A stretch of 48,538 bases of DNA, taken from IMG/VR virus record IMGVR_UViG_2740892445_000002; one strand, 5' to 3'. The DNA comes from a virus (Duplodnaviria; Heunggongvirae; Uroviricota; Caudoviricetes). Position 1 is the first letter of the stretch; every line of letters starts with the position of its first letter. The notes under the pieces are model-generated. The model ran no database searches and was not told the origin of the DNA. It was given only the letters and a program-made list of their open reading frames with translations. Below, in pieces: positions 2,689 to 47,120 of the stretch. The translations under genes were made by a program, and so were the position numbers.

Positions 2689-5600
2689 TCACGAAATACT
2701 GATACCCGCCGTGGATTTTTTCATGACCACAACCAGTAAATCACTGATGTATGTTGTCGGCGTCCAGTGGTTCACCCCGTTCGACCACACATTAAACGTC
2801 AGGGTCACATGACCCCGTCCTGCCGGCATATCAATGACGGACGAAAACACCCGGGTGACATCCGTTGCCGGCTCATGAAAAATTACCCTTCCGTTCATCT
2901 GCACCTGTAACTGACACGTGGAATACCATGTTGAAGTGTGATCTTTGCTGGACTGGTGCTCATGTCTCGCCCCCCGGAACAGTACCGGTGGAATGATGAT
3001 CTGCCTGTCGAAGCCCTGGTCATCATAAACGGTGACCGTTATAGTGCCACTGGCATAACTGTTATTCCGTGGGAAAGCTTTCCCCACTGTTTTGACCAGG
3101 TCACCTTCAATCTGGTTTGCAGACAGTTTTCCCAGAATCCGGCAGTTCTGGTTAATGGTCACATTATTGAGCGTGCCAGAGTTCGCATTAATATTTCCGC
3201 TGATATCCGCATTACGGGCCGTCAGCCTGCCTTCCGGCGTCAGGGAGAACACAGGGGGATTGCCGGACGAGGTGATGCTCACCGCAAACAACCGCTTCAG
3301 GAATACGTCGTTCATGAACAACTGATTCCCCTGCGCCACAAACAGCGGCGTGGTGTTGCCGTTCTCCGGGTTAATCATCGCGATACGGTCAGCCTGCAGC
3401 AGAATATTGCTCAGGGTCTGGCCATCAACATCCTCAATCCCCGCACCAATACCAGCAACATACGGAATACCGTTTTTCGTTTTCTGCACCTTCAGCATGT
3501 ACAGTGCGCTCAGGCTGTCATCCGTCTCCTTCTGCACACGCTGTATCTGCTGTATGGTGACACTCTGGTCTTCCAGGATTTTATTGACCGTCTGTGTGAT
3601 TTCATTGCGGGTTTCTGTGATGGTGGTCTTCATCTCCGCCATCTCATCATCAAGCTGACTGTTATCAATCAGCTCCCACATCCCCTGTGCCAGATGTGTC
3701 TTCCCGATTTCTCCTTTGAAAAAGTCCAGATAACCTTCCGCATCATTGCTCGCCCGTCCGGTTGCTTCAACAAAAACGGATTTACCCACCAGGTTGACGC
3801 TGCGCACATAAAACCAGAAATCTGTCCCTGGCTTAATGTGCGAGCCGGAGACGCTCCACTGGCTGCCGGTCCCCAGATAACGGGCGGACGTTTCCACCTG
3901 TGCCGTGTTCGTGATGCGTTTTTCTGAGAACCAGAATTCAAACTGTACCGTCGGATCATACAACGCAAGACGCGGCACTGCTGTTATCTGGAAATAGCCG
4001 GGGGTCAGTTCAATGGTGGCAGGTGCTGCCGGTGCGTTAATCCGGAACGTGGTGGTGGCAGGCTCCCCCAGCTGGCCATAGCTGTTTATCGCCCTGACCG
4101 TCAGGGTGTATTCCCCCAGCGGCAGGCCACTGAAACGGTGCTCCGTGTCGGCGGTGATGGCGCTGGTCACCAGACGGCTGTTTTCACCGGTTCCGCTGGT
4201 CAGGCGCAGACTGAAGCGCACGCCCTTCACCACCCTCGGCGTGTCCCATTTCGCCGCCGCCAGATACTGACCGTCAGACGCGCTTACCTCCACCGTGAGA
4301 TGCTGTACTGCCGGAGGTGTGACACTGTTCAGCGAACCGGACAACGGCTCAAAGGTGGCACCATTATCCACGATGGCCTCCTTCTCCGGCACATGCTGCA
4401 CCGCCGTGATGGCGAAGGTACCGTCCGCATTTTCGCGGATCGCCACACACCGAAACAGACGGCGGCGCAGTCCCGGCAATGCCAGCCCCCAGATACTGTG
4501 TTCCACCACCCCGTCAGGCAGTGTACTGATCTGTATCCTGTCAGGTGATGGCTGCCCGGTAACATCCACACTCACCGGTTTACCGCTGCCGTTTATCAGA
4601 TTCACCGTGGATGTGCCCTTTTCCGGGAGGGTGACTTCACGGTCAAGCGTCAGGGTCCGGCTGGCGTTGTCGACGGACAGGATCCGCCCGCCGATCACGG
4701 TACCGGCATACGCATTATCACTGATTTCAATGATATCGCCCGGCGTGTGACGCAGTCCCTCCGCCCCCACACTGAAATCCACTGTCTGTGTTTCCAGCAG
4801 TTCGGTCTTTATCACCCACAGGCCTGCCCGGTGAGCCTGACCACGGCTGGTACAGCCGAACGCATCCATCTTCAGAAGATTGCGTCCGTAGCGCAGTATG
4901 GCATCCGGATCCTCCACCAGTTCAGTCGATGTCTGCCAGCCATTCTGCGGATCGGTGTAATTCACCTCAACTGCCGTGTGTCTGTCCTTGAGGGCACTGA
5001 AGCTGTAATGAAAACTTACCCCATCCTCCCCCGTCACCACATTACCGGCGGTATAAGTCCAGACAACATCCGATGGTCTGTCCTGAACAAACGTCAGCGT
5101 CTGTCCGTTCCATACCGGCATACAGCGCATTGCAGAGCAGAAATCCCCCAGCACGTCCCACGCCTTACGCTGTTGTGACAGGTACGCATTAAAGGTCATA
5201 CGGGGTTCTGTACCACCAAAGCCATCCGGAACCGGCTGGTCACAGTACTGTCCGAGGGCATAGAGCGCCCACTTGTCCACATCCGCGGCCCCGAGGCGCT
5301 TTCCCATACCATAACGTGGATGCGTCAGCATATCCCACAGACACCAGGCCGGGTTGTTGCTGTATGCCGGTTTCAGAGTCCCGTCCCAGATACCGCTGTA
5401 TGTACGTTTTTCCGGGTCATAGTTTGACGGCACCTGGATGATGCGCCCGCGGATATGGTAGTTCACCGCCATCTGCTGCCCACCGAACTGCTCCGCATCC
5501 ACCTGCAGCCCCACTATGGCTGTGTTCGGGTAGCTCTGTTTCACATCGATGATTTCGGTGTATGACGACCAGAGCGTTCTGTTCTGCAGCTGGTCCGTGG

Positions 5601-6406: not shown

Positions 6407-7045
6407 TCATCCCCGCCCGATAACCACCACCTTACCGTCTCCGCCTTCATCACGGGTGCTGATGTCCTGGGATATCCGTCGCGACCCCACAAGCATCTCA
6501 CCATAAGGCACCGGCATCGGGTTACCCTGGGCAATCATGTTGTCCAGTGAGGAGAAATACGTGTTCCGTTTACCATTATCTGTTGTCGTGGCAGACGGTG
6601 TTTTCGCCCTGGGGGTGAGCATCTGCGTGATACCCCCCACCATCATGGCCACCCCAAGATTACCGATGACAGCACCAATACCGGTCCAGCTGAATACATA
6701 TCCCACAACAGCCAGAACAGCACCGGCCACCACCTGAAGAACACCGCCGTTTTTTGCCCCCTCCGTCCGGGGCACCAGATGGATAACATTCCCGTCATTC
6801 AACGGCTCACATACTCTGGAATGAAGCTCCTGTTCAGATACATCCCTGCCCGCAATGCGTAACTGATACCATCCCTCATACAGTTTCTGCCGGAATCCCG
6901 GCACCTGCAGCGACAGGGCACGGATGGCCTCCGCAGCCGTGTTCACATACAGGCTGATGCGGCGACCAAATCGTTGTAAATCCCCGTGAAGGCAGATACG
7001 GACCAGTGGCGGTGACGCCAGACAGAATGCGTTCGTCGTTGCCAT
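6407..7045 (-). CDS. I: tail assembly protein I
   Basis: 212 aa, ...ICLHGDLQRFGRRI... and C-terminal GK(R)NTYFSSLDNMIAQGN motif as in lambda gpI. Confidence 0.9.
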   Translation of the reverse strand: MATTNAFCLASPPLVRICLHGDLQRFGRRISLYVNTAAEAIRALSLQVPGFRQKLYEGWYQLRIAGRDVSEQELHSRVCEPLNDGNVIHLVPRTEGAKNGGVLQVVAGAVLAVVGYVFSWTGIGAVIGNLGVAMMVGGITQMLTPRAKTPSATTTDNGKRNTYFSSLDNMIAQGNPMPVPYGEMLVGSRRISQDISTRDEGGDGKVVVIGRG

Positions 7046-29846: not shown

Positions 29847-29851
29847 GTCCA

Positions 29852-29876
29852 TAAAAAAGCCCCTCCGGAGAGGGGC
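29852..29876 (-). terminator. intrinsic terminator after repeat unit 1
   Basis: Minus-strand GCCCCUC-UCCG-GAGGGGC followed by UUUUUUAU. Confidence 0.6.
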
Positions 29877-29898
29877 ATACTAGCTATATATCCATTTA

Positions 29899-30026
29899 TC
29901 ATTGGCTGCGTGGTGCCGGGTGCCTCCCGGTGAGCTCAGTCTGGTGTCACTGAGCCCGCACATTCTCGATCCAAGTTATCGTCGGAGATAATACCTGATA
30001 CACCAGACGCCCCTCCGCACAGGGGG
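29899..30026 (-). repeat. tRNA-like cloverleaf repeat unit 1 (candidate structured ncRNA)
   Basis: Conserved blocks GGTGCCGGGTGCCTCCCGGTG and CCCCTCCGCACAGGGGGATTCACCA; terminal stem CGTGGTG/CACCACG; variable interior. Confidence 0.5.
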
Positions 30027-30263
30027 ATTCACCACGCGCAGAGAAGGATACTGAACACTATTTTCTCCAGGCAATATGCAATAACATGAAGTGTGAGATG
30101 ACTTACAATTATAAAAAACAGCCTACAGAATACTCCTAAATAAAGCCATATCAAAATGAGTAACACAAAAAGGAACCAGGCAAAAATTTACGAGCAGGTA
30201 TTATCCAGCAACAGTTCAGACGCCATAACTTATTGCCGATAGCTACCATCAATAATTTCTTTC

Positions 30264-30289
30264 ATAAAAAAGCCCCTCTGAAGAGGGGC
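30264..30289 (-). terminator. intrinsic terminator after repeat unit 2
   Basis: Minus-strand GCCCCUC-UUCA-GAGGGGC followed by UUUUUUAU. Confidence 0.6.
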
Positions 30290-30316
30290 TGACATACGCA
30301 TTTGCTTTCATCATCA

Positions 30317-30439
30317 ATATGGCGCCGGGTGCCTCCCGGTGCTCCATAACTGATTAATATGGAACGCGGTTTCATTCAGTTGCATTCATGAATAACACTC
30401 TAATCAGTCCGCCCCGCCGCTTAGGGGGATTCGCCATAT
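30317..30439 (-). repeat. tRNA-like cloverleaf repeat unit 2 (candidate structured ncRNA)
   Basis: Same blocks with compensatory changes (GGCGCC... / ...GATTCGCCA); terminal stem ATATGGCG/CGCCATAT; interior closed by ACTGATTA/TAATCAGT. Confidence 0.5.
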
Positions 30440-30574
30440 AAATTGAAAGTACTGAACACATCTGTCACAAACAATATGCAATTGTATGAATTGTGAGATT
30501 ATTATCAATAACACAAAATTACAGCTCTAGTACATAAACAGCAGATTAAACAAGAACAACAAAAGTATTGAATT

Positions 30575-30697
30575 GCACGGTGCCGGGTGCCTCCCGGTGA
30601 ATTCTGCAATGACCAGACAGAATCCGCAACTTGCTACTAACGCTAATGCGACCAAGCCTCAGTCATTATGCCCCTCCGCACAGGGGGATTCACCATG
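30575..30697 (-). repeat. tRNA-like cloverleaf repeat unit 3 (candidate structured ncRNA)
   Basis: Same conserved blocks; terminal stem GCACGGTG/CACCATGC (one mismatch); interior closed by AATGAC/GTCATT. Confidence 0.5.
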
Positions 30698-30827
30698 CGC
30701 TAAAAAAATACAAAACGTCACGTCACTCTGACAATACGAAGCACCATAAAATGTGAGTTATTTATCAATTCTTAATTCTGGTTACAGGAATATTCCGAAT
30801 CAAATCTTTAAAAAAAGAAATTCAAAT

Positions 30828-30930
30828 GCATGGTGCCGGGTGCCTCCCGGTGAACAGACCGTCCGTGATACCAGTAGGCAACACAGGAAATTAATGGTAT
30901 CACCCCACCGCACAGGGGGATTCACCATGC
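30828..30930 (-). repeat. tRNA-like cloverleaf repeat unit 4 (candidate structured ncRNA)
   Basis: Same conserved blocks; terminal stem GCATGGTG/CACCATGC; interior closed by GTGATACCA/TGGTATCAC. Confidence 0.5.
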
Positions 30931-31320
30931 AGGCGTTTTCTTAGCAAACTAACTGCGCGCCCGGCAACTCCCAACCACATAAAACGTGGAGTTTGTAGCA
31001 TTTATGCACATAACTCACAGGGGTTATCTTAAAAAAAGCTGACCATGCTTCCCCGGCAACGCAATAACTTTATTCCCTGAAGTGGCATCCCCCGTATTGT
31101 CGGCAGGCTCAAAAAGGAGCCAGTCATCTGAGGATGACTGGAAAAAGGAAAGATAAAAAATTATTCATCATACAACCTTCGTTGCAGGGGAGAATCCTGC
31201 GGTGCAGCAACATACAAAAACATAAGCCAACTAACAATATGCAGGCATAGCATTTTCGGATTTTGTTATATGGCACGGTAACTGAATGCTTACCTGATAT
31301 ACAGTCCGGTATAAAGTTGC

Positions 31321-31582: not shown

Positions 31583-31660
31583 TGCTGGACCGTCACCGGG
31601 GACTCGAACCCCGCATTTTCAACATAAAAAGGTTGATGCTCTTTCCTGATGAGCTAGTGA
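31583..31660 (-). tRNA. tRNA-like gene with 8-nt anticodon loop CUUUUUAU (Lys-UUU-like; possible variant or pseudogene)
   Basis: Acceptor stem CCGTCAC/GTGACGG, D arm GCTC-ATCAGGAAA-GAGC, T arm CGGGG-TTCGAGT-CCCCG, encoded CCA; anticodon loop one nt too long. Confidence 0.55.
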
Positions 31661-31662
31661 CG

Positions 31663-31737
31663 GCATGGTTGCCTTGCTGGATTTGAACCAGCGACCTGGC
31701 GATTATGAGTCTCTCGCTCTCACCACTGAGCTAAAGG
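31663..31737 (-). tRNA. tRNA-like gene with CAU anticodon (Met/Ile2-like), imperfect acceptor and anticodon stems; possible pseudogene
   Basis: D arm GCTC-AGTGGTGA-GAGC, anticodon loop CTCATAA, T arm GCTGG-TTCAAAT-CCAGC, CCA; only 4 of 7 acceptor pairs form by my reading. Confidence 0.45.
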
Positions 31738-36107: not shown

Positions 36108-36263
36108 TTACTTCTCAGATTCGTAAGCTGTGAAGACAGCGACCTCCGTCTGGCCGGTTCGGATTCGTACCTCGCAGAGGTCTTTCCTCGTTACCAGTAC
36201 CGTTACAACGACGGTAATACAGATGACGATCAGGGCGATTAGCATCGCCTTTTGCTGCTTCAT
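36108..36263 (-). CDS. hokD: Hok-family type I toxin (HokD/RelF-like)
   Basis: 51 aa MKQQKAMLIALIVICITVVVTVLVTRKDLCEVRIRTGQTEVAVFTAYESEK, near-identical to my recollection of HokD. Confidence 0.9.
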   Translation of the reverse strand: MKQQKAMLIALIVICITVVVTVLVTRKDLCEVRIRTGQTEVAVFTAYESEK

Positions 36264-36440
36264 AGCCTGCTGCTCCTTGCCTTTCGGCGCGTAAGAGGCT
36301 AATCTAAGTGTGCAAGTCATAGATATGGCCTCAGATTAATGTTAAGCGTCCTGCAAGACGCATAATGTTAACTGGGGCTTTTCTCTGTCTGCCTTACGTC
36401 GGCATGCCCGAGGCAGACAGCCTCAAGCACCCGCAGCAAT
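36264..36440. promoter_or_regulatory. hok mRNA leader / mok start / antisense Sok region
   Basis: Minus-strand leader GGGUGCUUGAGGCUGUCUGCCUC... resembles hok mRNA 5' end; in-frame upstream start MTCTLRL... Confidence 0.45.
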
Positions 36441-42144: not shown

Positions 42145-42621
42145 ATGCTTAGTGGTAAAGACTTAGGCCGAGCGATAGAGCAGGCCATTAACAAAAAAAT
42201 TGCATCAGGATCCGTCAAATCAAAGGCGGAGGTAGCGCGTCACTTCAAAGTCCAACCACCATCAATCTATGATTGGATTAAGAAAGGTTCGATAAGTAAA
42301 GATAAACTTCCAGAGCTATGGCGTTTCTTTTCTGATGTGGTTGGCCCAGAGCATTGGGGGCTTAACGAATACCCCATACCAACCTCCCTCATTTCAGATA
42401 CAAAAAGTGAACTTTTAGACATAAACAGCCTTTATCAAGCCGCCTCTGATGAAAAAAGAGCCATTGTGGCTTTTCTCTTATCAGAAAATGCCACGGAACC
42501 TAGTTGGGTTGATCATGACGTTCGCGCCTACATTTCCACAATGGAGATGAAGGTAGGTAAGTATTTGAAAGATCAAGAATCAGAACGGAAAAGCCAGAAC
42601 ATCACCAAAACGGGAACTTAA
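42145..42621 (+). CDS. CI-like prophage repressor (RacR/DicA-like HTH, no peptidase domain evident)
   Basis: 158 aa with N-terminal HTH-like region; divergent arrangement with Cro-like gene. Confidence 0.7.
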   Translation: MLSGKDLGRAIEQAINKKIASGSVKSKAEVARHFKVQPPSIYDWIKKGSISKDKLPELWRFFSDVVGPEHWGLNEYPIPTSLISDTKSELLDINSLYQAASDEKRAIVAFLLSENATEPSWVDHDVRAYISTMEMKVGKYLKDQESERKSQNITKTGT

Positions 42622-42714: not shown

Positions 42715-42760
42715 ACATTAGGCGCAGCCTATTGACAATTAATTAGGCATTACCTATAGT
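42715..42760 (+). promoter_or_regulatory. pL-like promoter TTGACA-17-TATAGT overlapped by operator half-sites
   Basis: Near-consensus sigma70 hexamers; TTAGGCG-like half-sites at about 42717-42734. Confidence 0.6.
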
Positions 42761-42940: not shown

Positions 42941-43093
42941 ATGGATACGCTCAATCTTAGCAACAACGAATCTCTGGTATGCGGTGTGTTCCCTAACCAG
43001 GACGGCACCTTCACCGCGATGACGTATACCAAAAGTAAAACGTTTAAAACCGCAGCTGGCGCGCATCGCTGGTTAGCAAGAAACACTGACTGA
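42941..43093 (+). CDS. small protein, YdfA-like
   Basis: About 50 aa from internal Met (MDTLNLSNNESLVCGVFPNQDGTF...), first gene after pL-like promoter. Confidence 0.4.
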   Translation: MDTLNLSNNESLVCGVFPNQDGTFTAMTYTKSKTFKTAAGAHRWLARNTD

Positions 43094-43464
43094 TGAGGTT
43101 GACGATGGAATTTAAATATTTACCGCCTTCAATCCAGGAGATTGCAGCACACACACTTCGTCATCGTCTGAACGAACTTGAATTGGAATCGGTAACAAAA
43201 AAAGACACTGATAATATGGCTCGTAATGTGCGCGATGCGTTTACTGGGCTGTTTTCAGATACAGCTTTAAATATCCATGGCACAGAGGATACAGCAAAAC
43301 AATTTGCAGAAAAAGAAGTGGAAGATCTCAGTTCAAAGAGCCAGAAACAGCCAAACAACCATGAAATTAACGAACTGCTTCTGGCAACAGGCTTCATAAA
43401 TATTAACGAATATGAACGCCGTAAAAAAATGTTATCTGATCAATCCATCAAGATATCTTTTTAG
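43093..43464 (+). CDS. hypothetical protein
   Basis: 123 aa ORF in pL-like operon. Confidence 0.45.
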   Translation: MRLTMEFKYLPPSIQEIAAHTLRHRLNELELESVTKKDTDNMARNVRDAFTGLFSDTALNIHGTEDTAKQFAEKEVEDLSSKSQKQPNNHEINELLLATGFININEYERRKKMLSDQSIKISF

Positions 43465-43626
43465 CATCAGCGTTTCTACGTTATTAAAACCATCAGATTT
43501 TAACATAGCTTCGATTCGCTGATTTAAATTGCCAACTAACTGTTGATACTGAGTAGATGGAAGCATGTGTACCAGCTCCTTGAGAACACAATAACATGCA
43601 CCAAGTTTTAACTCCTGCTCTGACAT
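43432..43626 (-). CDS. small hypothetical protein (about 64 aa) antisense-oriented within the leftward operon
   Basis: Internal Met MSEQELKLGACYCVLKEL... behind GGAGGA Shine-Dalgarno. Confidence 0.4.
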   Translation of the reverse strand: MSEQELKLGACYCVLKELVHMLPSTQYQQLVGNLNQRIEAMLKSDGFNNVETLMLKRYLDGLIR

Positions 43627-43962
43627 TTTATCCTCCATTGAGGTTACTGGTTGAGAATGGAGACCTCTCGTGACAGCGTGTGGTCGTGCGCCGGACACGG
43701 ATAAGAATCCGACACTGACAGTTTACTGAAAGGATATATCCCTGAAAAGTCAGGGCATAACACGAAAGCGCACGGCGAGATTCCTTTGCATATAAGGCTT
43801 GTCGTTAAATTTCTTCAACCGCGCGTTTCCGGTTGTGGCAATCCGCGAAATAGCGCGGCGGTAAGTATGGCGGGGCTATTCCTTCCCCCGTTGAGGACAC
43901 CGGGTTGTCAGGTTGACCATACGCTTAAGTGACACCCCAGCCACAACAACCTCTGTTATCAC

Positions 43963-44002
43963 TTTTCTGGTGATTCGGCGGAAATGGATATCCGCTCTTT
44001 TT
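43963..44002 (+). ncRNA. dicF: DicF-like small RNA
   Basis: UUUCUGGUGA 5' seed then GGCGGA-AAUGGAUA-UCCGC hairpin and U-run; downstream TTTTTAAAGTGAATTTTGTGATG..GGTGAATGCGGC matches the dicF-dicB spacer as I recall it. Confidence 0.65.
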
Positions 44003-44179
44003 AAAGTGAATTTTGTGATGCGGTGAATGCGGCCATGCGCACGCAGAACAGTTAAAACAAGCGGTCTTTTACTCGCGTAACAGACATCAACTAACAATCC
44101 GGCGTTAATTGTTAACTGGTTAACGTCACCTGGAGGCACCAGGCACGGCATCACAAAATTCATTGTTGAGGACGCGATA

Positions 44180-44368
44180 ATGGAAACGTTATTACCAAAC
44201 GTTAATACGTCTGAAGGTTGTTTTGATATTGGTGTTCTGCTCAGTAATAAAGCGTTTACTGAGGATGCCATTAATATGCGGAAATATGAGCCTTATCTGC
44301 TCAATGATAATTCCATTCTTTCCCGAATTGCCCTTATTAAACTTGGTATTTTCGGAGAACGTCAATGA
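44180..44368 (+). CDS. dicB: cell division inhibitor DicB
   Basis: 62 aa, METLLPNVNTSEGCFDIGVLLSNKAFTEDAIN... like Qin DicB. Confidence 0.85.
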   Translation: METLLPNVNTSEGCFDIGVLLSNKAFTEDAINMRKYEPYLLNDNSILSRIALIKLGIFGERQ

Positions 44369-44553
44369 CTTCAGCATTTGCACTGGTGATGACGGTTTTT
44401 CTTATAACGGGTGAATCACAGAATGTGATTACCGGAATTTATGCCAGTAAAGAATCCTGCCTCCAGGCAAGAGACGAGCAAAAAATTTCTGGTGAATGCC
44501 TCCCGGTAAAAAAAGTATCGCTGTACCTGAATAACGAAACACCGGCTGGATAA
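44365..44553 (+). CDS. YdfD-like small membrane protein
   Basis: 62 aa, N-terminal hydrophobic segment; ATGA-coupled to dicB as ydfD is in Qin. Confidence 0.55.
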   Translation: MTSAFALVMTVFLITGESQNVITGIYASKESCLQARDEQKISGECLPVKKVSLYLNNETPAG

Positions 44554-44648
44554 CCCTCCAGCCATATTAACGCCATACCAACGGATTAAAAATGCCAGCA
44601 ATGGCAGGGATTCGTTCACCCTGAAATCTGTAATGAGGTTAAAACACA

Positions 44649-47120
44649 ATGAGTAAAATCTTTATTTGCGCGGCTATTCCTGATGAACAGGCCATAAAAG
44701 AAGATAGCGCTGTTGCGGTGGCCACTGCCATTGAAGCCGGTGATGAGCGTCGCGCACGCGCAAAATTTCACTGGCAATTTCTGGAGCAATTCCCGGCAGC
44801 TCAGGACTGCGCTTATAAATTTATTGTCTGTGAGGATAAACCCGGCATACCCCGCCCTGCCCTCGATTCCTGGGATACCGAATATATGCAGGAAAACCGC
44901 TGGGATGAGGCGTCTGCTTCCTTTGTCCCGGTCGAGACTGAATCCGATCCGATGAACGTCACCTTTGACAAGCTGGCCCCTGAAGTACAGAACGCCGTCA
45001 TGGTTAAGTTCGACACATGTGAAAACATCACTGTTGATATGGTGATTAGCGCACAGGAATTGTTGCAGGAAGACATGGCAACATTCGACGGCCATATCGT
45101 TGAAGCGTTGATGAAAATGCCAGAAGTTAACGCCATGTATCCGGAGCTTAAGCTGCATGCCATCGGGTGGGTTAAGCATAAATGCAAGCCTGCTGCTAAA
45201 TGGCCCGAAATTCAGGCAGAGATGCGCATCTGGAAAAAACGTCGCGAAGGTGAACGCAAGGAAACCGGGAAATACACATCTGTCGTTGATATCGCCCGTT
45301 CCAGAGTAAACCAACAGAACACTGAAAACTCTGCTGAAAAAACCGGGGCTGTCACTGTTGCCGTTCGCCGAGAATACAAACAGACATGGAAAACACTCGA
45401 CAATGAGCTGGCCTGCGCCCTCTGGCCCGGTGATGTGAATGCGGGAAATATTGACGGTACCATCCATCGCTGGGCGACAAATGAGGTTATCGACAAGGAT
45501 CGCGAAGACTGGAAGCGTATCTCAGCATCAATGCGCAAACAGCCCGAAGCACTTGGCTATGACCGTCAGACTATTTTTGGCCTTGTCCGTGAACGTCCGA
45601 TCGACATTCACAAAGATCCCGTTGCACTGAACAAATATATCAGCGAATACCTGACAACAAAGGGCGTGTTTGAGCATGAAGAAACAGACCAGAGCTCTGC
45701 TGATGCTCTCCAGCCGTCAGCAGCACAAACTGCTCCAGTGGAGACGGCAGAATCCGATACTCAAAAAAATGAAATCCTGGTGGAAGCTGAACCATCTGTA
45801 GAGCGTGAAGGACCATTTTATTTCGTCTTTACCGATAAGGGCGAGGAAAAATACGGCAGGGCAAACAAACTTTCTGGTCTGGACAAGGCGCTGGCTGCCG
45901 GCGCTACCGAAATCTCAAAAGAGGAATATTTTGCCCGAAAAAATGGCACATATACGGGCTTACCGCAAAATGTAGATACCGCTGAAGATTCCGTACAACC
46001 AGAGCCGGTAAAAGTTACCGCTGACGAAGTAAACAAAATTATGCAGGCAGCCAATATCAGCCAGCCTGACGCCGATAAATTGCTTGCTGCATCACGTGGT
46101 GAATTTGTTGAAGGGATTAGCGACCCTAATGATCCGAAATGGGTGAAAGGGATCCAGAGTCGCAACGCTGAGGACCAGAATCAGCCCGGCGTGAAACAAA
46201 ATGAGCCAGAAGCGGAACAAAACAGCCCGGATACGCAACAAAACGGGTCAGAAGAGCAACAACCAGAACCAGCAGTGCAACAGGAAGTGGAGAAAGTTTG
46301 CACCGCATGCGGTCAGACCGGTGGCGGCAACTGTCCTGACTGTGGTGCGGTGATGGGCGACGCAACCTACCAGGAAACATTCGATGGAGAGAGCCTGGTT
46401 GAAGTTCAGGAAAATGCTCCGGAGGAAATGGAAGGCACTGAAGATCCGCACAAGGAGAACACTGACAGCGATCAGTATCACGCCAGCGATAATAAAACTG
46501 GCGAGACAGCAAATCCCTTAATTAAGGTGAACGGTCATCGTGAAATCACATCCACCAGCAGGTTGTGGCACCATCTGATGATTGACCTTGAAACAATGGG
46601 AAAAAATCCTGATGCGCCAATAAACGCTATAGCCGGTAAGTTTTTTGATCCGGCAACCGGAGAGATGGGGCCAGAATTCAGCAAAACTATCGATCTGGAA
46701 ACCGCAGGCGGGGTCATCGAACGGGACACCATTAAGTGGTGGCTGAAACAGTCACGCGAAGCACAATCCGCCATTCTGACCGATGAAATCCCGTTGGATG
46801 ATGCACTGCTGCAATTCCGGGAATTTATCGACGAAAACTCCGGTGAATTTTTTGTTCAGGTCTGGGGTAACGGTGCAACTTTCGACAACGTGATTTTACG
46901 CCGTTCATATGAACGGCAGGGGATCCCCTGCCCGTGGCGTTACACCAATGATCGCGATGTAAGAACGATGGTTGCTCTGGGACTGGTGATGGATTTCGAC
47001 GCAAGAACGACTATTCCATTCGAAGGTGAACACCATAACGCCCTGCACGATACGCGTTACCAGGCAAAATACGTTTCAGCCATCTGGCAAAAACTGATCC
47101 CGAGTCAGGCTGATTTTTAA
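44649..47120 (+). CDS. large protein with C-terminal DEDDh 3'-5' exonuclease domain
   Basis: 823 aa; C-terminal motifs IDLETMG (Exo I), GNGATFDNVIL (Exo II), HNALHDTRYQAKY (Exo III); central CxxC...CxxC. Confidence 0.75.
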   Translation: MSKIFICAAIPDEQAIKEDSAVAVATAIEAGDERRARAKFHWQFLEQFPAAQDCAYKFIVCEDKPGIPRPALDSWDTEYMQENRWDEASASFVPVETESDPMNVTFDKLAPEVQNAVMVKFDTCENITVDMVISAQELLQEDMATFDGHIVEALMKMPEVNAMYPELKLHAIGWVKHKCKPAAKWPEIQAEMRIWKKRREGERKETGKYTSVVDIARSRVNQQNTENSAEKTGAVTVAVRREYKQTWKTLDNELACALWPGDVNAGNIDGTIHRWATNEVIDKDREDWKRISASMRKQPEALGYDRQTIFGLVRERPIDIHKDPVALNKYISEYLTTKGVFEHEETDQSSADALQPSAAQTAPVETAESDTQKNEILVEAEPSVEREGPFYFVFTDKGEEKYGRANKLSGLDKALAAGATEISKEEYFARKNGTYTGLPQNVDTAEDSVQPEPVKVTADEVNKIMQAANISQPDADKLLAASRGEFVEGISDPNDPKWVKGIQSRNAEDQNQPGVKQNEPEAEQNSPDTQQNGSEEQQPEPAVQQEVEKVCTACGQTGGGNCPDCGAVMGDATYQETFDGESLVEVQENAPEEMEGTEDPHKENTDSDQYHASDNKTGETANPLIKVNGHREITSTSRLWHHLMIDLETMGKNPDAPINAIAGKFFDPATGEMGPEFSKTIDLETAGGVIERDTIKWWLKQSREAQSAILTDEIPLDDALLQFREFIDENSGEFFVQVWGNGATFDNVILRRSYERQGIPCPWRYTNDRDVRTMVALGLVMDFDARTTIPFEGEHHNALHDTRYQAKYVSAIWQKLIPSQADF

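Follow-up and report, generated by a model that had tools for sequence, protein, structure and literature searches.

DicF is a textbook prophage small RNA (sRNA) and a virulence regulator in enterohaemorrhagic Escherichia coli (EHEC). In the Caudoviricetes sequence examined here (IMG/VR record IMGVR_UViG_2740892445_000002; 48,538 nucleotides (nt), hereafter the window), the place that dicF holds in the Qin prophage of E. coli K-12 is taken by a 39-nt allele that keeps the DicF 5' end and the base of the DicF terminator and carries a different body between them. Judged from its sequence and its distribution among genomes, this short dicF allele is a known element in a variant form that is common yet has gone unrecognised, and not a working DicF. 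We consider it probable that the allele serves as an attenuator or terminator that yields a seed-only small RNA and leaves the control of cell division to DicB.

The short allele lies at 43964-44002 (+) and reads TTTCTGGTGATTCGGCGGAAATGGATATCCGCTCTTTTT, which comprises the 10-nt DicF 5' end, UUC, a hairpin and CUUUUU. An earlier sequence-only reading of the window had quoted these 39 nt, which are present exactly, as a DicF-like sRNA with a preserved 5' seed and a shortened body. Both descriptions are borne out, as nt 1-10 are identical to those of K-12 DicF and the length is 39 nt compared with 58 nt in K-12, the U-tail counted in each. The alignment with the Qin dicF-dicB region proposed in that reading likewise succeeded, with syntenic loci and flanks of ~95% identity extending from roughly 260 nt upstream through DicF nt 10 and resuming at the 3' side of the terminator stem for ~180 nt downstream to the dicB start codon. 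Mean column identity across about 500 nt around the 39 nt is 90%, so that chance is no plausible source of the match. Between the two conserved points K-12 has CGTTTGGCGGTATCAGTTTTACTCCGTGACTGCTCTGCCGCC and the window has TTCGGCGGAAATGGATATCCGCT; the window retains DicF nt 1-10 and the terminator stem base, and in place of nt 11-48 it has UUC and a 6-base-pair (bp) hairpin with an 8-nt loop. The alignment establishes 43964-44002 as the positional orthologue of K-12 Qin dicF.

The operon position is also that of K-12 DicF (b1574; RF00039), which follows ydfA-type genes and precedes dicB by about 175 nt. In the window the allele stands between ydfABC-type genes and dicB, with a DUF1391 gene upstream and the DicB start 177 nt downstream. 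Features shared with the K-12 locus include, within the flanks, the leader of the precursor and an RNase III-type helix downstream and, inside the RNA itself, nt 1-10, the stem base (GGCGG/CCGC) and the U-tail. The short allele differs from K-12 DicF in being 19 nt shorter, in the replacement of nt 11-48, in lacking the 3' arm for ftsZ, manX and pykA, and in having a terminator that is weaker by about 5-7 kcal/mol.

By the criterion of the Rfam covariance model for DicF (RF00039, gathering score 48 bits), the short allele is outside the DicF family although it is at the dicF locus. The K-12 dicF positive control scored 76.7 bits. The model found no match on the whole window at the gathering score, and at E<=10 it matched neither the 701 nt nor the 81 nt around the short allele. 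The sequence-only reading had named failure in Rfam beforehand as grounds for abandoning the DicF assignment, and on this point it did not survive. A different, 56-nt dicF allele, described below, scored 43.5 bits, slightly below the threshold, and is a near-member of the family, unlike the short allele.

The pairing capacity of the short allele was compared with that of canonical DicF for four K-12 targets, ftsZ, xylR, pykA and manX, the last of which was reportedly studied as a DicF target by Azam and Vanderpool. By mutation and compensatory mutation, ftsZ was shown to pair through its ribosome-binding site with the 3' region of DicF, mutants of which lose ftsZ control, while xylR pairs with the DicF 5' end and pykA requires both regions (PMC5069750). 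Duplex energies were calculated in segment-wise and site-restricted runs at the validated sites. These replaced whole-length duplexfold runs against 140-nt targets, in which the sRNA duplexes were long, riddled with loops and no better than shuffles, and which were dropped. At the ftsZ ribosome-binding site canonical DicF reaches -15.8 kcal/mol via AGUUUUACUCCG. This stretch is absent from the short allele, and with it the ftsZ complementarity of DicF; the best duplex of the short allele with ftsZ is -9.4 kcal/mol and uses nucleotides also present in canonical DicF. For xylR, the canonical RNA forms 13 contiguous bp with nt 5-17 at -20.3 kcal/mol, against about 6-7 bp and -9.1 kcal/mol for the short allele. 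The corresponding values are -33.9 and -8.8 kcal/mol for manX and -15.4 and -7.6 kcal/mol for pykA, and the short-allele duplexes at the validated sites are weak and form mostly via other nucleotides. Within the 5' region used for xylR and pykA pairing (UUUCUGGUGACGUUUGG), nt 1-10 agree with DicF, nt 11-16 do not, and the region is 2 nt shorter. Because the nucleotides that form the ftsZ, manX and pykA duplexes are gone and the seed for xylR breaks off at nt 10, we would not expect DicF-type repression of ftsZ from an RNA of this sequence.

The part of the short allele that has replaced the DicF body resembles a Rho-independent terminator. A terminator scan identified a hairpin, GGCGGA-AAUGGAUA-UCCGCU, at 43977-43996 (+), with a T-tract at 43998-44002. 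The predicted fold of the window RNA has 13 single-stranded 5' nt, a 6-bp stem with an 8-nt loop and then CUUUUU, and its minimum free energy is -8.5 kcal/mol compared with -15.9 kcal/mol for K-12 DicF. The terminator associated with DicF is represented in the window by a predicted hairpin and five T residues, in weaker form than in K-12.

Upstream of the allele lies a conserved non-coding leader (43700-43963, +; ~95% identity to K-12) that is homologous to the upstream part of the 190-nt DicF precursor. A leader hairpin, GUUAUCAC-UUUUC-UGGUGAU, is predicted in both the window and K-12, with the expected RNase E site in its loop, and in the precursor fold the retained 10 nt pair with the upstream GUUAUCAC. 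Downstream, a structured spacer including the dicB 5' untranslated region (UTR) occupies 44003-44167 (+). RNAalifold applied to 14 diverse loci gave a closing helix of ~15 bp (44008-44025 with 44144-44161) around three hairpins, one of which is CACCUGGAGGCACCAGG. The helix is kept across the 14 loci, with CG, UG or UA at one pair; at one pair in the window there is a G-G mismatch. The spacer is a probable RNase III substrate, and in K-12 RNase III is reported to cut in the spacer helix (PMC9438474; bioRxiv 10.1101/2023.04.14.536235). Processing by RNase III as well as RNase E has been demonstrated for K-12 only, where the dicF terminator ends most transcripts and longer species were undetected (bioRxiv 10.1101/2023.04.14.536235). 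The spacer resembles the STnc100 family (RF02076) weakly and is not a member of it, as 44009-44157 scored 22 bits (E=0.014), below the gathering score of 47. The same spacer element is also found upstream of kilR in the Rac prophage and of other genes in other prophages.

The short allele is widespread. A 63-nt query spanning it, with full-length matches at 90-100% identity accepted, was found in 442 of 5426 complete E. coli genomes (~8%) at 528 places, and canonical dicF occurs in 3975 of these genomes at 6700 places. Many of the carriers are O157:H7 strains. In O157:H7 EC4115 the allele is located at 2,615,155-2,615,193 (+) in a serU/mtfA prophage with a LexA-type repressor and a different integrase, and its presence under differing repressor and integrase genes indicates that the dicF-dicB-ydfD-exo block moves as a mosaic module. 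Escherichia albertii carries the allele as well. We assembled 45 hairpin-bearing sequences, comprising 42 loci from viral contigs, the window, the closest E. coli genome (L122) and an E. albertii sequence (L123). The same 5' end, UUUCUGGUGAUU, directly precedes the hairpin in all 45, the sequences vary at just one loop base (U/C) and where stem and tail end, and a single DicB allele group lies downstream in 43. When the scan was anchored on the flanks and imposed no seed requirement, the short allele was present in 19 of 19 matches. A canonical locus and a short locus (L014 and L016) have nearly identical flanks and differ in the allele patch, with a mosaic breakpoint inside the sRNA at nt 10/11; their near-shared flanks indicate that the difference is a local patch and not another prophage backbone.

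None of 50,697 GenBank phage records contains the short allele. Canonical dicF occurs in 22 of them (among these records H76-H87, e.g. LR597641.1), one being from the isolated phage mEp460; for the 2016 DicF paper, the phage databases of that time had given no dicF matches. Exact canonical dicF loci were also seen in two contigs of metagenome-assembled genomes labelled 'Veillonella parvula' (L129) and 'Collinsella sp.' (L130), which are most likely mis-binned E. coli prophage DNA. A full-text literature search for the short sequence returned no match within its reach, which did not extend to Melson & Kendall 2019 or Faubladier & Bouche 1994. Near-identical genomes annotated by the Prokaryotic Genome Annotation Pipeline (PGAP) list dicB and the DUF1482 gene without dicF, but RefSeq omits canonical dicF too, so the missing annotation of the short allele is uninformative and was set aside. 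For EDL933, four DicF entries of 52-56 nt are given (PMC5331693), and EHEC DicF is cited as having four copies (PMC7873438). If the EDL933 entries came from Rfam, as their names suggest, the short locus would be additional to these four copies.

Neither the DicB allele nor the immunity type was retained as the cause of the short allele. Group-2 DicB also occurs beside canonical dicF, and the short allele is found with both RacR-type and LexA-type repressors. Origin by one deletion was likewise rejected, since the canonical DicF body does not contain the loop AAATGGATAT as a subsequence and a single deletion does not account for it. Derivation from an alt56/KilS-like hairpin is speculation.

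These features can be combined in a mechanism for the attenuator reading. Once RacR repression is lifted, transcription would start from a promoter-like site at 42732-42760 and pass along the conserved leader to the hairpin and U-tract, which would act as an intrinsic terminator or attenuator ahead of the toxic dicB gene. With a folding energy roughly half that of the K-12 terminator, it may allow relatively more read-through into dicB-ydfD-exo; here we infer that a weaker hairpin at the K-12 terminator position lets more polymerase reach dicB. Cleavage by RNase E in the loop AUCAC/UUUUC (the stroke marks the cut) would release an RNA of 35-39 nt with only about 13 single-stranded 5' nt. Such an RNA is predicted to be unable to form the validated DicF duplexes with ftsZ, manX, pykA or xylR, and division inhibition by the module would consequently come from DicB alone. 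Any trans-acting role would be left to the 10-13-nt 5' end acting on other targets.

Two other RNAs place the short allele among related elements. The 56-nt allele mentioned above (GGCGGCATCTGTTTGCCCATGAACTGATGTCCGCCC; L008, L103 and L126) fills this slot with a body of its own, the flanks being the same, and, unlike the short allele, keeps DicF nt 1-20 and a long hairpin. KilS of K-12 Rac (b4833; L137 8406-8503 (-)), a positional homologue of the long DicF precursor, occupies the equivalent position upstream of the division inhibitor gene kilR, and its likeness to the window (43820-44170) covers GGCGG...CCGCCCTTTTT at the base of the terminator and the entire structured spacer downstream. The last 48 nt of KilS (GGCGGCATCAG...CTGATGTCCGCCCTTTTT) and all of the spacer as far as the start codon of kilR have their homologues in the dicF terminator base and in the spacer between dicF and dicB, and the KilS 5' end maps to the homologous start of the 190-nt DicF precursor. 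KilS differs in that it is without the UUUCUGGUGA 5' end and about 90 nt of the DicF leader, and in that it has a long terminator hairpin followed by kilR rather than dicB. The short allele does not qualify as KilS, a 98-nt RNA whose 5' 50 nt have no counterpart at 43964-44002. A northern blot has confirmed KilS as an sRNA associated with Hfq, in a paper in which DicF is unmentioned (PMC8175672). In further loci (L027, L029, L118, L119, L127 and L057), what comes after canonical dicF and the spacer is not dicB but a kilR-like gene or some other small open reading frame (ORF), and these differing genes indicate that the RNA module recombines with various downstream genes.

A broader proposal, which we put forward tentatively and regard as unlikely, is that the locus constitutes an exchangeable sRNA slot before prophage division-inhibitor genes (dicB, kilR and others), each body having its own target range. 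From the conserved flanks would come the sites of processing, the base of the terminator and the structure of the 5' UTR, and the short allele, as part of the same claim, would be a natural seed-only DicF. The occurrence of at least four bodies between conserved flanks, namely canonical DicF, the 56-nt allele, the short allele and KilS of Rac, supports such a modular view without proving it, with the window allele as the minimal form. If the slot proposal is true, the short allele separates the 5'-end targets in metabolism and virulence from the control of ftsZ and represents an uncounted fifth dicF-type locus in O157:H7.

Several observations weigh against the attenuator reading with its seed-only RNA. 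Conservation of the 10 nt may reflect only their membership of the left flank or of the processing hairpin and not selection on a seed. The window allele has a G.U pair at the stem base that makes it the weakest among the short alleles, and at the expected RNase E site the -2 base is C (AUCAC/UUUUC) where K-12 has A (AUCAA/UUUUC). The pairing energies describe hybridisation only, with accessibility ignored, and cover only the four K-12 mRNAs. The main rival holds that the locus is purely cis-acting, as a terminator and processing site, or is a decayed remnant, in either case with no function in trans, and that the 10 nt are conserved as part of the processing hairpin and of the flank used in recombination. 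The breakpoint that falls inside the sRNA and the pairing of the 10 nt with the upstream arm of the precursor hairpin speak for this rival, as do the small, weak hairpin and the loss of all four validated targets. It has to accommodate, however, an allele that is little changed in hundreds of genomes, in two species and under differing immunity and integration modules, and that still possesses the U-tail and the 5' single-stranded stretch required for an Hfq-type sRNA. These properties are no proof of function, and we regard a cis-only locus as a serious possibility that is nevertheless on the unlikely side.

The remaining alternatives both assign the RNA a fuller role in trans, and we consider each of them very improbable. 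Were the allele a complete DicF sRNA, dependent on Hfq, repressing ftsZ and acting jointly with DicB to cause filamentation, its locus, first 10 nt and operon partners would all be as observed, since they are shared with dicF. Such a function is difficult to reconcile with an RNA that RF00039 leaves unmatched at every threshold and that lacks the ftsZ-pairing stretch, given that mutants in the DicF 3' region lose ftsZ control (PMC5069750). Alternatively, the sRNA could have been re-targeted, with the new 8-nt loop (AAAUGGAUA; other alleles have AAACGGAUA) and the 5' end recognising other host or phage mRNAs, and the dicF/kilS position serving for the exchange of bodies with different specificities. 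The variety of bodies in this one position agrees with the idea, as does KilS, which is an Hfq-associated sRNA with its own partner (PMC8175672). The 6-bp stem and 8-nt loop nevertheless offer little pairing surface, the loop is polymorphic (U/C) among the short alleles, and no target was predicted or found, although no genome-wide target search was made. The attenuator that releases a seed-only RNA remains the reading we prefer.

The surrounding genes combine a Qin-type operon with a Rac-type early region, as the sequence-only reading had recognised. The racR-type repressor gene (42145-42621, +; 158 amino acids (aa)) encodes a protein with 93% identity to K-12 RacR and no similarity to K-12 DicA, and PGAP calls the near-identical gene racR. 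The divergent Cro-like gene beside it has 86% identity to K-12 YdaS, and with YdaT the region upstream of the operon is of the RacR/YdaS/YdaT type, in likeness to the racR-ydaS-ydaT immunity region of Rac and in place of DicA/DicC of Qin. Between racR and the first operon gene, a consensus scan found a sigma-70 promoter-like site (TTGACA-17-TATAGT, 11/12; 42732-42760, +), which we infer to be the candidate early-left promoter of the operon and the counterpart of dicBp. The operon begins with a ydfA/ydaF-like DUF1391 gene (42941-43093, +; Pfam DUF1391, 97.1 bits; phrog_751). The place of ydfB/ydfC in Qin is taken by a 123-aa ORF (43093-43464, +; phrog_2151, 185 bits), which has no match in Pfam or NCBIfam, and by an antisense 65-aa ORF (43432-43629, -; phrog_4987, 165.9 bits, full length), which lies inside the early-left operon where Rac has sieB and is left out of the PGAP annotation in the closest genome.

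Past the short allele the gene order continues as in the Qin dicBF operon (ydfABC-dicF-dicB-ydfD). The dicB gene (44180-44368, +; 62 aa, allele group 2) passes both family models over residues 1-62 of 62, with 121.4 bits for PF05358 (cut-off 27) and 112.2 bits for NF049927 (cut-off 100), and its product has 65% identity to K-12 DicB, from which it diverges in the C-terminal half. DicB proteins form two allele groups that differ in this half (…ELLNKICIVSMLARLRL… and …YEPYLLNDNSILSRIAL…), and short dicF is nearly always accompanied by the second. The ydfD-like DUF1482 gene (44365-44553, +; 62 aa; PF07358, 59.7 bits, cut-off 25) is likewise a divergent allele, with 47% identity to K-12 YdfD, and its start lies inside the dicB stop in an ATGA overlap at 44365-44368. 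The DicB homologue and the coupled YdfD-like ORF of the sequence-only reading are thus confirmed. Its description of the whole as a Qin-type cell-division control module is upheld for the dicF-dicB-ydfD locus and for DicB; a contribution of the DicF type is not to be expected, as the ftsZ-pairing body has been replaced.

The next gene of the operon encodes an 823-aa exonuclease (44649-47120, +; full-length match to phrog_2082; 205 bits for the Pfam Rv2179c-like 3'-5' exonuclease domain), and xis and int come after it. With its exo, xis, int, head, tail and lysis genes, the window looks like a complete lambdoid prophage and not a cryptic one, and in the closest genome the same element is a complete lambdoid prophage between potB and potC. 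That genome has 99.4% identity over 821 queried bases; its DUF1391 gene contains an internal stop and its next ORF is partial (5162-5476, compared with window 42941-43464), and both are intact in the window. A reading of the operon as a defence system was dropped, as PADLOC matched none of its proteins.

Other structured RNAs were identified elsewhere in the window. Four tandem STnc100 copies (RF02076; 132.9, 101.5, 99.6 and 77 bits) at 29847-30960 (-) and 31589-31737 (-) adjoin two tRNA genes in the late-regulatory region; STnc100 has been related to PasD sRNAs (2026 preprint). A sok antitoxin RNA (RF01794, 114.8 bits) at 36258-36432 (-) marks a hok/sok type I toxin-antitoxin locus, and hokD is annotated at this position in the closest genome.

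Should the RNA of the short allele be inert, the finding amounts to no more than ordinary mosaicism in a known operon. As the allele is invisible to Rfam, dicF copy counts and strains described as deleted for all dicF genes are possibly incomplete. If the short hairpin terminates less well than that of K-12, carrier prophages would produce more DicB per induction event. The short allele provides a natural separation of the DicF 5' end from the ftsZ arm and, together with the homology to KilS, suggests a modular evolution of sRNAs between conserved flanks.

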